Assembly: GCA_951406725.2 (NCBI GenBank)
Contig: OX597814.1
Span: 36,332,001-36,396,000, forward strand
Length of the DNA: 64,000 bases
Direction: 5' to 3'
DNA from: Octopus vulgaris
Taxonomy: Eukaryota
In this document: one piece after another, positions 3,001 through 44,683 of the stretch
How positions within the stretch are numbered: position 1 is the stretch's first letter
Layout: each line of letters opens with the position of its first letter
Translations under genes and position numbers: made by a program
Notes under the pieces: generated by a model
What the model was told of the DNA's origin: nothing
Database searches by the model: none
What the model saw: only the letters and a program-made list of their open reading frames with translations

Positions 3001-3667
3001 TGCTATTTCATCTTTATGAACTGCATTAATTTCTAAGGCCCTTCATTGTTTCTTGCTTCAGCATAACACCTGATACATTTCTTCTATGCTATGCATAATC
3101 CCTTCTTATCATTTTCGATTTGCTCACCACCAGAACTTGGAGTATTACTTTACAGCTTCCCTAATACATAATTTCTTTAACTTTTATTTGTCTGTATCAT
3201 TTAAAATTCATTAAATTTTGTGCTCATTAAAATTCATTAAAAACAGTTCATCAAATTTTCATATTTCCTCTTTCATCCTGGTTTTCTGGATATTTCACCT
3301 CCTGGATATCACTATCGTTTTTCCCTTTCCTCCTCTCTTCATTCACTTGAGTGTTTTCTGAGGTGTCTTTGTGAGTACATTTCTCCCTGATATCCTGAGA
3401 CAATGTCAGCTAATGTGAGCCTCCTTTCCATTCAATGGATCTATCTTTGTCTTCCAGTTCATCATTTAACACTTCAAACCTATCTTATATTCCTATTTGA
3501 TTTTATGTTCCTATTTGAAATTCATCTGGAGACCATTTACATTTACTTGTGATTTCCTTTCTATAACTAACTTAGCTCTTTCAAACCTCATATTAAGCCT
3601 AATAGTTGTACTTACCAGACAATGGTTGCTCTGTGTACAAACAGTATTTCACTATAGCTTACTTAGT

Positions 3668-3863
3668 CTTTTACTAGTTTCAGTCATTTGACTGTGGCCA
3701 TGCTGGAGCCCTGCCTTTAGTTGAACAAACTGCCCGCAGGACTCATTCTTTGCAAGCCTAGTATTTATTCTATCGATATCTTTCTGAACTGCTAAGTTAC
3801 TGGCAAGTAAACACACCAGCATCGGTTGTCAAGCGATAGTGGGGGTACAAAGACAGGCACACA

Positions 3864-3918
<55 letters not shown>

Positions 3919-4074
3919 TGGGCTTCTTTTGGTTTCCATCTTACAAATCCACTCACAAAGCTTTGGTTGGCCCGAAGTTATAGTAGAAAACACTTGCCCA
4001 AGGTGCCATGCTGTGGGTCTGAACCCGAAATCATGGGGTAGGTAAGCAAGCTACTTACCACACAGTCATACCTG
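3668..4074 (-). mobile_element. tRNA-derived SINE family C with internal (CA)n microsatellite
   Basis: Minus strand head TGTGTGGTAAGTAGCTTGCT, core GGCACCTTGGGCAAGTG, tail CAGTCAAATGACTGAAAC; similar copies at 36085 and 39638. Confidence 0.8.
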
Positions 4075-4460
4075 TACCTATAATATACCTATAATATAGT
4101 CACACATTCATACCTGTACCTATAATATATATATTGTCAATATAAATTAATTTAATATTTTTTACTTCCCTTTCTGGACATTTCTCTGCTTATTTTCATG
4201 TTGAATGATTTTTAAAGAATCTGTACATAATTTTTAGAGTTGCTGCTTTTTACAAATTCAATCAAATTATGTTTGTCACTCATTACAAAACTTCCCTATG
4301 ATTTTCCTTGATTTATGAATATTTCGTTCCACTTTGGCATTAAAATTGTTCAAGAGCTCATTTACCTTTTCATCTGTGTAACTAGATTTCTGTGTATTTT
4401 CCTGTATTATATGTCTTATTTGCATTTTTGAAAGCTAATCTGACTTCATTTATTGCTGTG

Positions 4461-5732
4461 TCAGGTTATCCCATAAGCTCTGCCTGATTTTACCTTTTTT
4501 AAAGTTGAATGAAATTTAATAGTATTTTAGAATGTGTAATGGAAGTAAAAATTATTTTTATACATTTGTGTACATTTAAACTAATTAAGTATTATTTTAC
4601 AGAATAATAGAATTAAAATTTCTATGATTAAAACTCTTTCTAACATGGAAGTATCCAAAGAGCATTTGAGGCACATAATGCTCTATGAGTACAAAAAAGG
4701 AAACCCTGCAGCCAAAGTGACTTGAAATGTACACTCAGTTTATGAGAAAGAAAGCCTGAATGAAAGAACTTGCAGAAGATGGTTTCCAAAATTCAGAAGT
4801 GGAGATTTCAGCCTTGAAGATGAAGATCGAACAGGACATCCAGTTGAGTTTGATGGTAAGATCCTTAAGGCATTACTTGAAGAAAATCCTGCATTATCAG
4901 TTGAAGAATAGGCAATAAAGCTTAGTTCAAACCATACAACTGTTCATCCTCATCTTCAACAACTTGGAAAGTTTCCTAAACTTGGAGAATGGGTGCTTCA
5001 TGAATTGTCCGAAAGCAACTGCAAATCCCGAGTTGACATCTGCTCTTCTCTCCATTCTCGTGAACTCATTTCACCCTTTTTGGATAGACTTGTGACTGGT
5101 GACGAAAAATGGATCTTCTATTGAAATGTTAAATGTTGTAAACAGTGGCTTGGTAAAAGAAAAGAAAGTTCAACCACAACCAAGAAGAGAACTTCATGGG
5201 AAAAAGGTTCTCTCTATCTGGTGGGATTGAAAGGGAGTAATTCACTTTGAATTGTTACCACCTAATGCAACAATCAATGCTCAAGTCTACTCTCAACAAT
5301 TAGAGTGTTTGAACCAAGCTTTGCAGAAAAAAAGACCCGCTTTAGTCAATCGAAAAGGAGTGATGTTTCATCAGGACAATGCGCAAACCCACACTGCAAA
5401 GATCACATCCCAGAAGATCAAAGAGCTTGGTTGGGAAAAATTCCTCATCCACCTTATTCACCTGACCTTGTTCCTTCAGACTACCATTTGTTTCGTAGTT
5501 TACAGAATCATTTGGGGGACATAACTTTCACAAGCCAGGAGGAAGTAGAAACTGATTTGTCAGAGTTCTTCGCTTTGAAACCAAAAGAGTTTAACATTGA
5601 TGGGATTTAAAAAGCTTGTAAATAGATGGAAGAAAGTCATAGATAATCATAGATTAAATTTCAATTAAATATAACATTTGGTCAATTGTTTTCTTTATTC
5701 AAAATTCAGACAGAACTTATGGGATGACCTGA
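4461..5732 (+). mobile_element. Full-length, inactive mariner transposon (~1.27 kb)
   Basis: TIRs TCAGGTTATCCCATAAGCTCTGCCTGATTTT / AAAATTCAGACAGAACTTATGGGATGACCTGA, right end followed by TA; typical mariner length. Confidence 0.92.
4645..5650 (+). pseudogene. Mariner transposase pseudogene
   Basis: MEVSKEHLRHIMLYEYKKG...WFPKFRSGDFSLED...WVLHEL...VTGDEKW...HQDNA...HPPYSPDLVPSDYHLF; several stops and frameshifts. Confidence 0.92.
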
Positions 5733-13360: not shown

Positions 13361-14197
13361 TTTTTATAATTTTACACTAACTTTAATATATTGTTAAACA
13401 CTAGGTGGGTAGATTTCAACACAGCTTCTCACCTCTTTCAATCATCTCCTTTGTATCCTTTTGCATCCTCTTTTGTTTTTTTGGTTATCTTTCTCTTTGT
13501 GTGTGTGTGTGCATGTGTGTGTGTGTGTGTCTGTGCTGTGTGTGTGCATGTGCATGTGTGTGCATGCATGTATATAAGTGTGGATATGTATGTATATTCT
13601 CCTCTTTCTCCTCCTCCTCATCATCATCATCATTTAACATCTCCCTTTTTGTGCTGGCATGGGTTGGATGAGTCTTATGGACTAAGTCAGTTTTGATTTA
13701 GATTTACTGTCCTCCTCTGACAATACTTCTAAACAGTACTAGAAAGTTTGACTTGTTTCTGAGAAGACCAAAGAGTCCTCACTACTCTACATTGTCTCCA
13801 TTTGTATGTCCTACAGGTTCAAACAAGTTGTTATACCTCCAGCAGGATTAAAAAGAGTCCCCACTTTGTTGCATTTTCTTCATTCATTCGTTTCTTTAGA
13901 TTCCAAACTATTGAGTGATGAAAGCGGAAGAGGTCGGTGAAAATAGAAATCTGAGGGTAATAGAAAAGAGAATAATAAAACAGAACCAGAGAAATAAAGT
14001 GATATATATATATATTCAAGTAGTTGAATGAATTATTATGGATAATTCGGTTAACCGATACCCGGGTAGCAAATTCACGTCAGAAAACACGGTTGAAGCT
14101 ACATGCCAAGGGCAGAGATCACGTGCTTTCGTGTGGAAATTTGTGTTTTTTTTACTATAAATAAATGAAAGAATGGAGTCGAACGACGATTTAACAA

Positions 14198-14299
14198 AAT
14201 TCCTTATTCTCGTCATATGTTTCGAAGACTGCATATTCCTAATTCTGAAGGAATAAAGAGTGCATTATGCCGCCTTCTCATCAGGAAAGACAAGGAACT
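14198..14299 (-). ncRNA. Type I hammerhead ribozyme fold (left arm; cleavage triplet reads GAC, probably inactivated)
   Basis: Minus strand: AGUUCCUUGUCUUUC-CUGAUGA-GAAGGC...GUCUUC-GAAA-CAUAUG-AC-GAGAAUAAGGAAUU. Confidence 0.7.
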
Positions 14300-14420
14300 T
14301 ATGTCAGCATCATGACGAACAAAAACTTTTAAATGACTGCCCACACGGAGTCCATAGTAATAATGGACTCCATGTGGGCAGTCATTTAAAAGTTTTTGTT
14401 CGTCATGATGCTGACATAAC

Positions 14421-14520
14421 TTCCTTGTCTTTCCTGATGAGAAGACAGCATAATGCACCCTTTATTCCTTCGGAATTAAGAATATGCAGTCTTCGAAAAC
14501 ATGTGTCGAGAATAAAGGAA
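14421..14520 (+). ncRNA. Type I hammerhead ribozyme fold (right arm; GUC triplet at 14505-14507)
   Basis: UUCCUUGUCUUUC-CUGAUGA(14434-14440)-GAAGAC...GUCUUC-GAAA(14495-14498)-ACAUGU-GUC-GAGAAUAAAGGAA; helices I and II pair; one extra A after GAAA. Confidence 0.72.
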
Positions 14521-14707
14521 TTTTGTTAAATTGTCGTTCGACTCCATTCTTTCATTAATCTATAGTAAAAAAACACACAAATTTCCACACGAAAGCACAT
14601 CATTTCTGCCCTTGGCATGTAGCTTCAACCGTGCTTTCTGACGTAAATTTGCTGCCCAGGTATCGGTTAACCGAATTATCCATACTAGGATAATTCTTTC
14701 AACTACT

Positions 14708-14742
<35 letters not shown>

Positions 14743-15466: not shown

Positions 15467-15983
15467 CAAGTCAACGAGGTGCCCTAGGAAAGCCATAGTC
15501 CAACTATTAAAAAAAGATGAAGCTATGTGAGTGCATGCATGCATGTGTCTCTGTGTGTATGTATGTTAGTGTGTGTGTGAGTGTGTGTGTGTGTATGTTC
15601 AAGATTACACTTACATAAAAGCCTGATTTAAGATGAATAAAAAGTAAAAGAAAAAAAAAAGAAAAAAAAACAATAATGAGAAACAACCAAGCAACTAATT
15701 ACATTATTATCAGAGGTTCCATTGCCTGACTTTACAAATTAGATATTAATTTTTCGTGTAATTAGAGTAATGTCGTTATTTAAAAAGCTATAAATATGTG
15801 GATTTTTAAAATCCCAGCAGTCTGGTTATTAAGTAGAAATTATGCATCTGTTGTGGTTAAAAAGAATTACTCTTACTAAAAATTCCTGGGCCACATATCA
15901 CATTCTTAATTAATCTTTTCTTCATTCTTGCTGCTTTATTTCAGTGAAATGTTTTGGGTTGTGTGCCAGACATTCCCACTCAC

Positions 15984-16332
15984 ATCATCGTCATCATCAT
16001 CATCATTGTTTAACGTCCGCTTTCCATGCTAGCATGGGTTGGATGATTTAACTGAGGTCTGGCGAACCAGATCGCTGCACCAGACTCCAATCTGATCTGG
16101 CAGAGTTTCTACAGCTGGCTGCCCTTCCTAATGCCAACCACTCTGAGAGTGTAGTGGGTGCTTTTACGTGTCACCAGCACGAGGGCCAGTCAGGCAGTAC
16201 TGGCAATGGCCATGCTCAAATGCTGCTTTTTGTGTGCCACCAGCACAGGAGCCAGTCCAGTGGTACTGGCAACAACCTCGCTCAAATGTTTTTTTCACAT
16301 GCCACCAGCGCAAGTGCTAGTAAGGCGACGCA
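15984..16332 (-). mobile_element. RTE-type LINE 3' UTR fragment
   Basis: (CAT)n then TTTAACGTCCGCTTTCCATGCTAGCATGGGTTGG...CCCTTCCTAATGCCAACC. Confidence 0.85.
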
Positions 16333-16504
16333 GGTAACAATCCCATATACTAAAAACAATGTCTCCCCCTCCTTTCTCCCTTTGTTTTCTATGGCCTCTC
16401 TATCTTTAGAACACTACCTTACTTCAGCCACTCTGCTTCCTTTAGACAGCCCATGCAATAAAAGTAAATGATGCTAAGAGTAAAAAAAAATCACTTTCTG
16501 TTTT

Positions 16505-16933
16505 CTCATTGACTGGCCTCCGTGCTGTGGGCACGTAACAAACACCATTCGATCGTATCCGTTCGCCAGCCTCCGAGCATGGCCGTTCGCTAGCCTCGTC
16601 TGGCACCTGTGTCGGTGGCACATAAAAAACACCATCCGAGCGTGGCCGTTCGCCAGCCTCGTCTGGCACCTGTGTCGGTGGCACGTAAAAACACCATCCG
16701 AGCGTGGCCGTTCGCCAGCCTCGTCTGGCACCTGTATCGGTGGCACATAAAATCACCCACTACACTCTCGGAGTGGTTGGCGTTAGGAAGGGCATCCAGC
16801 TGTAGAAACACTGCCAGATCTGACTGGCCTGGTGCAGCCTTCGGGCTTCCCAGACCCCAGTTGAACCGTCCAACCCATGCTAGCATGGAAAGCAGACGTT
16901 AAACGATGATGATGATGATGATGATGATGATGA
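16505..16933 (+). mobile_element. Young RTE-type 3' UTR copy with ~62 bp tandem units and (GAT)n tail
   Basis: Repeated AAAAACACCATCCGAGCGTGGCCGTTCGCCAGCCTCGTCTGGCACCTGTGTCGGTGGCAC; CpG-rich; near-identical inverted copy at 33832-34335. Confidence 0.88.
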
Positions 16934-30367: not shown

Positions 30368-31447
30368 CACTGAAAGTGTAGCTGCTAGAATAAGAATATC
30401 CTGGGCAAAGTTCAGAGAGCTCTTACCTCTGCTGGTGACAAAGGACCTCTCACTCAGAGTAAAAGGTAGACTGTATGATGCATGTGTATAAACAGCCATG
30501 CTACATGGAAGTGAAACATGGGCCATGTCTGCTGAGGACATGAGTAAGCTCACAAGGAATGAAGCTAGTATGTAAGTACCTTGAGAGAAAAGTTGGACCT
30601 AAGAAGCATCAGATATAGAGTGCAAGAGAGACAACTGCGCTGGTTTGGTCATGTGGCAAGAATGGATGAGGATAGCTGTGTGAAAAAGTGCCACATTCTA
30701 ACGGTTGAGTGAACCTGTGGAAGAGGTAGGCCCAGGAAGACCTGGGATGAAGTGGTGAAGCACAACCTTCAAACATTAGGCCTCACTGAGGCAATGACTA
30801 GTGACAGAGACTTTTCAAAATATGCTGTGCATGAGAAGACCTGGCAAGCCAAATGAGACCATAACCTCGTAGCCTATGCCAAGGGTGTAACCAGCCCACT
30901 TATACATACCTTTTCTTCATTGGACATTAAACTCTGCTTGCGAAGATCTGTTGAGGCAAGTGAAATTGAAATTGAAATCGAATTCGATGACTGGCATCTG
31001 TGCTAGTGGAGCACTAAGAGCACCATCCAAGCATGATTGTTGCCAGAGCAGCTAACTGGCTTCCATGCCAGTGACTCATAAAAAGCACCATATGAGCATG
31101 ATTGTAACCAGCGTCACCTTACTGGCACTTGTGCTGGTGCCACGTGAAAAACATTCGAGTGAGGTCATTGCCAGTGCCACTGGACTGGCTCCTGTGCAGG
31201 TGGCACGTAAAAAAACACCATTTGAGCATGGCCATTGCCAATACCGCCTGACTGGCCTCATGTTGGCAGCACATAAAAGCACCCACTACACTCTCGGAGT
31301 GGTTGGCGTTAGGAAGGGCATCCAGCTGTAGAAACTCTGCTAGATCAAGATTGGAGTCTGGTGCAGCCATTTGGTTCACCAGTCCTGAGTCAAATCATCC
31401 AACCCATGCTAGCATGGAAAGTGGACGTTAAACGATGATGATGATGA

Positions 31448-31450
<3 letters not shown>
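30368..31450 (+). mobile_element. 5'-truncated RTE-clade LINE (ORF C-terminus, 3' UTR, (GAT)n tail)
   Basis: ARIRISWAKFRELLPLL...KGRLYDACV*TAMLHGSETW...LRWFGHVARMDE...GRGRPRKTW, then the common 3' UTR. Confidence 0.9.
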
Positions 31451-33560: not shown

Positions 33561-33831
33561 TACATATATACATATATTTTTTTATTCTTTTACCTGTTTC
33601 AGACAAACACATATAAATATATATACACATACATAAACTATTATACACACACACACATTATGGGCTTCTTTTGGCTTCTTTCAGTTTTTGTCTATCAAAT
33701 CCAATCCACACATAAGAATTTGGTCGGCCTGATGTCATAGTAGAAGACAATTGCCCAAGGTGCCACACAGTGGCACTGAACCCAGAACAATGTAACTAGG
33801 AAGCAAGCATCTTATATGCATATATATATAT

Positions 33832-34335
33832 CATCATCATCATCATCATCATCATCGTTTAACGTCTGCTTTCCATGCTAGCATGGGTTGGACGGTTCAA
33901 CTGGGGTCTGGGGAGCCCGAAGGCTGCACCAGGCTAGTCAGATCTGGCAGTGTTTCTACAGCTGGATGCCCTTCCTAATGCCAACCACTCCGAGAGTGTA
34001 GTGGGTGATTTTACGTGCCACCGACACAGGTGCCAGACGAGGCTGGCGAACGGCCACGCTCGGATGGTGTTTTTTATGTGCCACCGACACAGGTGCCAGA
34101 CGAGGCTGGCAGACGGCCACGCTCGGATGGTGTTTTTTATGTGCCACCGACACAGGTGCCAGACGAGGCTGGCGAACGGCCATGATCGCATGGTGTTTGT
34201 TACGTGCCCACAGCACGGAGGCCAGTCGATGCGGTACTGGCTACGGCCACGTTCGGATGGTTTTCTTATGTGCCACCGGCACTGGTACCACAAAGATACA
34301 AATTCCATTGATGTTCATCTATTTTGATTTGGTTT
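33832..34335 (-). mobile_element. Young RTE-type 3' UTR copy with ~62 bp tandem units
   Basis: Reverse complement of 16505-16933 over most of its length. Confidence 0.88.
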
Positions 34336-42690: not shown

Positions 42691-43825
42691 TAGAAAGAGA
42701 GACTGTGTGAGTGGGAAGATGAATAATTGTAAAGAGAGGCTGCGAGAACAATGGTAATGCTGATAATGTTGATCATAAGAGAGCTGGTGAAAGATGGAAA
42801 TGCGAATGAAGAAGTAAGAGATAAGAAGTAAAGCAAGAAAGAGAAGGAGATGAAGACAAGAGAAAGAGGAAGAGATATGGGAGATAGAACAAAGGAGATT
42901 CTTGGTGGAGAAGAACCAGAAACAATGAAACAGGAACAGTGTCATTGCAAGAACTAGGAAATAGTACTGAATCTGTGAAACACACAGACATACACTAATA
43001 AACATGCCACAAACACACACACACACACACACACACATTTGTATGTATGCGGTAAAGAGAATGAATAATAAAAGAAAGGGAGATAGAGAGAATGAAAGAG
43101 AATGAATGGCAATGAAAACAAAGAGAGGAAAAGAGAGTGAAAGATAAAAGATAATTGTATTGGGAATATTTATTAATCTTGTCTCAAAACATAGAAAAAT
43201 CTAGAATTCCCAACAGAATGGACATTTCTAATTCAAGGAACTCATGAAATGTCAAAAGATGTCTGGAGAAATGAAATTCATTTTGGTGCCGAGGTGGGTG
43301 GTTTGACGTAAACAATACAAAGTGTTCGTATAACATACTTGCATTTAGCTTTCATTAAATACACAACTTATTGGCAGTGATAGGTTTTTACTACATTTTC
43401 TCTGTCAGACAAATTGTTGGCAAATAAGGAAATTATTTTAGAGATACTCATTAAATAACTTATAACATAGTAACATGAAAAGAAAAGATGAAAATATAAA
43501 AAAAAAAAATGTGAAGAATTAACAGACAAAATAAGAAAATCAAAATAAAATATATAAAGCATTGATTTTGAGCATCAGCGTATGACAGCAAGTTGGCAGT
43601 CATATTGAAGTGTCAAATAAAATGCTTTCTGGTATTTATGTTCTGAGTTCAACTCCTACTAAGGTCAACTTTGCCCTTTATTCTTTCTTAAGGTTAGTAA
43701 TTGAAGTGTAAAGGTAGTTAAGTGGCCATTTTGTTAGAATGTCAGATAGACAACTTTACAGTATTCATACTGACTCTCAGTAATCTGAGTTCAAATTCCA
43801 TGAAGGTTACCTTTACCTTTTCCTC

Positions 43826-44135
43826 CTCATCATCATCATTTAATGCCTGCTTTCCATGCTAGCACGGGTTGGATGGTTCGACCGGGGTCTGGGAAGCTGC
43901 ACCAGGCTCCAGTCTGATCTAGCAGTGTTTCTACAGCTGGATGCCCTTCCTAACGCCAACCACTCCATGAGTGTAGTCGGTACTTTTTACGTGCCACCGG
44001 CACAGGGAGCAGAGGAGGCTGGCAAACGGCCATGATTGCTTGGTGCTTTTACATGTCACCGACATGGATGCCAGTCAGGTGGCACTGGCATCTGCCACAT
44101 TCGGACGGTGCTTTTTACATGTCACCGGCACGGGT
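43826..44135 (-). mobile_element. RTE-type 3' UTR fragment
   Basis: (CAT)n, TTTCCATGCTAGC, CTACAGCTGGATGCCCTTCCTAACGCCAACC. Confidence 0.85.
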
Positions 44136-44683
44136 GTATTCTCTAGAATTCACAAATAATATACCTTTCATAGACTGGGGTCAATTTTTCTCTTTCACTT
44201 TGTCAGCCTGCCTGTCTATCTCTCATTTTGTGAAAGAACTCTTTGTGATCTAAAATATACCCAAGATATGCCATATGTCACAAAAACACTCCAATGATGT
44301 GATTAATAGTTGAGAGCTGAAGTTAAGGTAAATAAAATACCAGGCATATCAATGGATTACTAGAATTGTTGGAGTGTTCATTAGAAAGCAATATGGCATG
44401 TGTTGTAAAATTTTGCTTTTAAAATCACCACCACCATCGTTTTAATGATCATTTACCTATGCTTGCAAAGGTCAGATGGAGTTTCTTGAGGTGGATTTTT
44501 TTAGAGCTGGATGCCCTTCTTATTACCAACCTTCACCTGTTTATAAACAAGGAAATATTTCTTCATTATCAGACATGTTTCCACACAGGGGACAACTGTC
44601 ACACAATATCAAAACAAGGACACACACACAAATTCACACAAATATACACATGTACAGTATATATATATATATATATATATATA

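Follow-up and report, generated by a model that had tools for sequence, protein, structure and literature searches.

Elements with head-to-head pLTRs that carry hammerhead ribozymes on opposite strands have been published among the Penelope-like elements (PLEs). Known PLE features include inverted, 5′-truncated copies and a tail at a single end (PMC8557442), and in Schistosoma paired hammerheads lie ~100–700 bp apart on opposite strands (PMC4209133). PLE hammerheads are of type I with a short palindromic helix III (Cervera and De la Pena 2014, PMC4209133), as in the octopus element analysed below. Retrozymes have been described as tandem derivatives of PLEs (bioRxiv 10.64898/2026.07.22.740005).

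Three groups of PLEs are among its closest counterparts. The C-terminal EN+ PLEs of the Hydra clade, which include Hydra-1_Obim and Penelope-13_HM (Craig et al. 2021, PMC8557442), share with the octopus element a single ORF with RT followed by GIY-YIG, a DKT motif, CxxC and CxH around conserved E and N residues, the absence of CCHH, a canonical hammerhead near the 3′ end and insertion into (TA)n; Penelope-13_HM is listed with a 5′-truncated inverted copy bearing a second hammerhead. The octopus element differs from the clade as described in that paper by an Asn-rich insert in place of the CxCX5C linker, by RWL for RWK in copy L050, by a length of 3.5 kb where Hydra elements are generally <3 kb, by a 146-nt tail, and by a hammerhead whose sequence is not that of the listed Hydra-1_oBim motif and whose helix II is much longer. 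The Adineta vaga families of Penelope (Arkhipova et al. 2013, PMC3846280) have in common with it inverted pLTRs placed head to head, their palindromic junctions, a tail confined to one inverted pLTR, Asn-rich ORF inserts and an initiator-like TCACT in the pLTR, whereas their tail measures 31 bp rather than ~146, and target-site duplications seen there are masked by (TA)n in the octopus. PAc, a Poseidon element of Anolis (Frangieh et al. 2024, PMC11167929), shares two RT starts bounding the tail, AT-rich cleavage, a hammerhead in the pLTR and uncleaved RNA as template.

Here we analyse a hairpin in a 64,000-nt stretch of Octopus vulgaris contig OX597814.1 (the window). We conclude, with a probability of about 0.88, that it consists of two 5′-truncated pLTRs of a high-copy PLE placed head to head in (TA)n, likely laid down by priming on both strands, likely dead, and with a left outer arm that was likely overwritten. 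The hairpin itself is ordinary PLE debris.

Structure of the hairpin

Aligned to each other, the arms extend over 14015–14355 and 14363–14710 and enclose the 7-nt loop AGTAATA. Of the 359 columns in the alignment, ~10 of which are flanking TA, 329 are matches, 21 mismatches and 9 gaps. The near-perfect palindrome between TA tracts reported in the initial annotation is thus confirmed; the tracts lie at 14002–14015 on the left and 14711–14738 on the right. In family coordinates the left arm (14016–14365, minus strand, counting the loop and a CAT microhomology) is a 5′-truncated pLTR that begins at arm position −10 and reaches the long 3′ end of the family (~347). The right arm (14363–14710, plus strand) is a pLTR copy from arm position 1 to the same long end and belongs to the lineage A83/A117/G140. 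The two meet at a junction made of the 7-nt loop and a 3-nt CAT/ATG microhomology (14356–14365). Each arm ends in a tail. On the right this is the ~146 nt between the short (~14564) and long (14710) family 3′ ends (14565–14710, plus strand); on the left (14016–14155, minus strand; arm ~202–347) it corresponds to the element's 5′ leader ahead of the ORF, has a 5-nt deletion and carries the lineage bases G83/G117/A140.

The arm is the pLTR of a Hydra-like PLE

We searched the 2.8-Gb genome (227 contigs) with a one-arm query, which gave 3129 candidates, the best 40 of which were scored. The loci analysed number 127, after 7 duplicates and 30 short RT loci had been dropped; 20 of the latter were refetched at greater length. 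The arm proved to be the pLTR of a 3.5-kb Penelope-like retroelement with RT and GIY-YIG-like domains that ends in (TA)n. Several copies run upstream from the arm into a 3′ UTR and then the ORF. In three full-length copies (L097, L098 and L100) the unit measures 3528–3537 nt, with the last part of the arm before the ORF and the arm again after it. The ATG lies ~50 nt past the long end, whereas in PAc the ORF is described as starting inside the hammerhead, with a coding tail (PMC11167929). The initial annotation had proposed a self-standing, non-coding fold-back family; since the arm is the pLTR of a coding PLE, and most copies are single-armed or pair one long with one short arm, that proposal does not hold.

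Open frames of 800–833 aa carry YRDD and IY..YIG motifs, and the protein has 424 homologues at E ≤ 1e-10, the best of which is a cephalopod protein at 34%. Direct Pfam and PDB sequence and profile searches with the element's protein gave no significant RT or GIY-YIG match. Its look-alikes in the Atlas score 0.94–0.97 and include clusters with RVT_1 (16–48% of members) and GIY-YIG (11%), and GIY-YIG matches were found in 5 of 30 homologues, weak and all under the cut-off. The RT and GIY-YIG calls are accordingly predictions drawn from motifs, homologues and Atlas features. Read in this way, the element has the organisation of an EN+ PLE, a single ORF with a predicted RT and C-terminal GIY-YIG endonuclease. 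Its pLTRs likewise derive from partial tandems, direct or inverted, with 5′ truncation (L097, L098, L100), inverted 5′ copies occur in 12 of 20 extended RT-bearing loci, and the optional tail on one end is present at a length of 146 rather than 30–40.

Within the EN+ PLEs, the Hydra features found in the protein are the DKT motif, CxxC and CxH in the EN and the absence of CCHH, and (TA)n insertion and a canonical hammerhead go with them. At the position of the RWK motif, copy L050 reads RWL, while 100 of 120 homologues have RW[KR]. The CxCX5C linker, present in 108 of the 120 homologues, was missing ahead of the EN motif from all 26 loci in which that motif was found (30 examined), and also from two older-lineage copies. 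Because of this absence we file the element, placed by its motifs, as a Hydra-like PLE and not as a Hydra member. The literature connects the linker with (TA)n targeting, so its loss from an element that still targets (TA)n argues against the linker as the targeting part. In the literature searched we found no description of (TA)n targeting by a Hydra-like element that lacks the linker, and none of this PLE family, of a 146-nt tail or of a counted rule for pairs of long and short arms, although the family may carry a name in Repbase or Dfam.

The hammerhead belongs to the parent element

The sequence signature of a type I hammerhead (CUGAnGA, GAAA and UH with three predicted helices) is present at the level of the family. 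The exact core pattern has at least 883 matches genome-wide and none in a reversed control, so the motif is not a chance occurrence, and the call of a type I hammerhead with the palindromic helix III of PLEs was borne out. A search with hammerhead models, as the initial annotation had suggested, succeeded in part: a single-armed copy matched Rfam Hammerhead_1 with 20 bits (E 0.011), short of the gathering score (34), and the whole hairpin gave no hammerhead match. The only matches of the hairpin in Rfam were to miRNA-type hairpins under their gathering scores, an identity that we rejected as generic.

Across 28 arms, including lineages 70–90% identical to the reference copy, 92% of the cells in the alignment are paired, a figure to be read with the fact that 23 of the 28 were picked by patterns fixing the core and helix II. 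One helix II pair forms a series of AU (19), GU (4) and GC (5), and changes of the UA/CG and UG/UA types occur in helix I, but pairs changed on both sides were not above shuffles in this set (209/500). Among 69 arms that were not selected by core, 50 keep all 13 core positions. In genomic arms the core deviates at 2.7% against 2.0% at other non-polymorphic sites, so inserted copies give no sign of core conservation and the core decays like other sites. Lineage-level variants in the core are absent.

Neither copy in the window has an intact core. The right motif (14421–14520, plus strand) comprises CUGAUGA at 14434–14440, helix II formed by GAAGAC (14441–14446) with GUCUUC (14489–14494), and GAAA..GUC at 14495–14507, where the GAAA box carries one extra A; the predicted cut falls after 14507. 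In the left motif (14201–14298, minus strand, core 14284–14278) a GUC>GAC change (U16.1>A) at 14213 destroys the GUC site, and one A has been lost from helix I. The initial annotation was therefore right that each arm has a different core lesion. The G in the helix III loop of the right arm, by contrast, is a lineage allele (31/158 arms) and not damage, and the helix I given in that annotation is better drawn as 4 bp, a 3×3 internal loop and 6 bp.

The predicted fold of the full hairpin (−524 kcal/mol, with helix II occupancy essentially zero) agrees with the idea that a read-through transcript would be a double-stranded rod that buries its ribozyme. For the companion idea, of transcripts that begin close to the centre and are able to cleave, we found no support: each core is damaged, and in a single arm helix II has a predicted occupancy of 0.97, whereas that of helix I is 0.0004 in the right arm and 0.09 in an intact copy. 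None of 40 sampled arms had its 5′ end at the ribozyme cut (position 146), in a sample that favours intact cores; in the three full-length copies the 5′ ends are at 105, 203 and 212. The hammerhead belongs to the parent element; its role there would be the cleavage of tandem transcripts, either in dimeric form or assisted by protein.

One long and one short arm

The family has two 3′ ends, a short one at arm position ~201 and a long one at ~347, the difference being the 146-nt tail. Sequence rich in TA follows 182 of 207 long or short ends, and the proposed (TA)n targeting is upheld by this count. Among the 127 loci, 53 contain arms in a single orientation and 74 in both. A long arm is paired with a short one in 71 of these 74 (70 as scored and L137 on re-reading); the exceptions are the window locus, L008, which is compound, and L157, with 1 kb between its arms. 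When the set picked for a long arm is left aside, the pairing holds in 61 of 63 loci (p = 2e-16 against 0.5). A clean long/long pair occurs only in the window, and with the whole hairpin as query this copy alone among the 40 best-scored loci covered all 696 nt, the other 39 being ~550 nt, long and short. On the points that the initial annotation had asked to be checked genome-wide, PLE ORFs adjoin several copies, (TA)n lies at their ends, a centre pattern found the same centre in 12 loci, and the 696-nt form is seen in 1 of 40 scored loci. Loci L151–L164 come mostly from older lineages (13 of 14 at ~70–90% identity to the reference copy); they retain the hammerhead core, both 3′ ends and pairs of long and short arms.

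Origin of the palindromes

A centre pattern was found at 29 loci, 12 of which have the exact junction of the window with its 3-nt CAT/ATG microhomology. These 12 palindromes fall in different lineages, with each arm matching its own partner, so the palindrome was likely formed anew each time. In 48 arm pairs compared at 10 lineage sites chosen by eye, 36 pairs have no mismatch, nine have one, two have two, and the window alone has three, whereas 55% of between-locus pairs have at least three. Palindromes are therefore likely to arise anew, from one template type each, and not to be copied as units, although later conversion between arms could also be a source of the shared haplotypes.

Many junctions lack symmetry, and 10 of 40 sampled 5′ ends fall between −10 and +7. 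At family arm positions −36 to −1 (window 14356–14362) there is an initiator-like TCACT, with TATAA ~30 nt upstream in the family sequence, and an exact pattern search found (TA)n joined directly to TCACT at 8 loci. The region may be the pLTR promoter, which would explain the hot spot of 5′ ends; transcription starting at TCACT and RT pausing at a nearby stem-loop may each produce it.

The reading that we consider probable is priming from both strands at one (TA)n cut, with the two cDNAs joined by microhomology. The endonuclease would cut both strands of (TA)n, and one 3′-OH would prime reverse transcription of uncleaved RNA at ~347 and the other at ~201, both start sites being AU-rich. The cDNAs would often stop near −10 to +7, anneal through 3 nt (ATG/CAT) and be filled in. 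In L1 twin priming, a nick in the second strand primes a second cDNA and an inversion results. Priming of a second cDNA from the second strand would, by analogy, be common to both systems, while in the octopus both starts would lie at fixed internal positions, and the usual overlap in sequence between the arms gives palindromes. Both-strand priming fits the data reported for the PLE protein PAc, in which both strands are cut and extended, a dimer is predicted, two internal starts are used and unprocessed RNA is preferred (PMC11167929).

Two other origins were weighed. That the hairpin arose by fold-back, through self-priming of one cDNA or of an antisense template, is improbable. A fold-back is conceivable for the CAT/ATG stem with its 7-nt loop, rare variants are common to both arms in most pairs, and self-priming on an antisense template was proposed by Arkhipova et al. 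(PMC3846280). But in 6 of the 11 other loci with the same junction the loop sits on the short arm and the partner is long (in the remaining 5 it sits on the long arm), which excludes fold-back of a short cDNA as their source; many junctions are asymmetric, some arms scarcely overlap in element coordinates, and the window arms differ at seven lineage sites. Very improbable, and already largely refuted, is a non-coding palindromic retrozyme family that spreads as a unit of two ribozymes. The 29 loci centred near the same place, with 12 identical junctions, would speak for such a family, and many short copies begin near −8 by TCACT, so that short pLTR transcripts might be mobilised. Against it, palindromes with the same centre belong to different lineages and match their own partner arms, 39 of 40 best-scored loci are the ~550-nt pairs, and ORF-linked copies carry the same haplotypes. 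Published animal retrozymes are described as head-to-tail tandems (bioRxiv 10.64898/2026.07.22.740005). Non-LTR retrozymes are ORF-less tandems of non-coding head-to-tail units, each with a hammerhead, and the octopus hairpin is instead a head-to-head pair of pLTRs with an ORF-linked parent.

History of the window locus

The arms do not represent one template; they differ at seven lineage sites, 83, 117, 140, 197, 241, 271 and 282. Both nevertheless carry a rare C>T change at arm position 24 (T24; 14386, plus strand, partner base 14332), whose 23-mer occurs three times in the genome, two of them in the window arms. Of 13 loci with the right arm's lineage, 9 have the loop allele T(−3); of 38 with the lineage of the left outer arm, 1 does. 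Somewhere within positions 25–82 (putative switch zone 14274–14331, minus strand) the left arm appears to leave the right arm's lineage for another, which suggests later overwriting, a reading favoured by the T24 in both arms and by a loop allele from the right arm's lineage. We regard it as somewhat the likelier course of events that the locus began as a normal pair of long and short arms and that the part of its left arm outward of 25–82 was later exchanged for a second copy with a long end, either through break repair or through another insertion joined by homology. Private substitutions number ~4 in the left arm and ~10 in the right; the left arm thus looks younger, but the difference lacks statistical significance (p = 0.18).

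It is less likely, though a serious contender, that a single event copied two RNAs of different lineages, both from the long start, and that conversion homogenised the centre later. Two RNAs would lift the constraint of one long and one short arm, so that a long/long locus with discordant arms would be expected, and the only clean long/long locus is indeed the most discordant of the 48 pairs; a second step is needed, however, to account for T24 on both arms and for a loop allele from the right arm's lineage. We give little credence to misassembly, in which the long left arm would have been pieced together from two loci or haplotypes. No other scored locus has this form, and among contigs assembled from three DNA-like or unlabelled runs and one presumed RNA run none spans the locus and none joins an empty site; contigs from these four runs cover the arms as family fragments. 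Yet the near-private T24 stands in both arms, the centre is the usual junction of the family, and both flanks are at single-copy depth in run X1. Overwriting of the left outer arm remains our preferred account.

Other repeats were seen in the window and at family loci. An unrelated repeat at window 15983–16929 also has inverted arms (~79% over 340 nt), 62-nt internal tandems and (ATC)n/(GAT)n ends, and ~10 further pieces of it lie in the window, for example at 666–971, 31100–31450, 33830–34290 and 43821–44136. In the left arm of locus L062, helix III of the hammerhead is interrupted by a 36-nt piece resembling the end of the (ATC)n repeat. Locus L031 holds a LINE-type RT fragment (3616–4631; PF00078, E 2e-18) in opposite orientation at the 5′ truncation of a PLE copy. 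L028 has two solo arms that look identical, are separated by 1159 nt and have duplicated flank; they are likely to reflect local duplication and not a PLE tandem.

Implications for PLE integration

Craig et al. 2021 (PMC8557442) leave open how tandem and inverted PLE structures form and where the bias towards microsatellites comes from, and the statistics of the octopus family bear on both questions. Tentatively, we propose that the enzyme acts as a dimer and, at a single (TA)n cut, lets both strands prime on one RNA, at two fixed sites 146 nt apart, which would force the palindromes to be long and short; that it would find (TA)n without the zinc-finger linker, probably through pairing of the primer with RNA at UA-rich starts; and that the window copy would be a case of a second element overwriting one arm. 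Head-to-head palindromes as numerous as these could be a source of long dsRNA. The pairing of long with short arms at 71 of 74 loci, together with a long and easily scored tail, yields sharp predictions for an in vitro system. If dimeric both-strand priming is true, the family would be a natural read-out of the unsolved integration step of PLEs.
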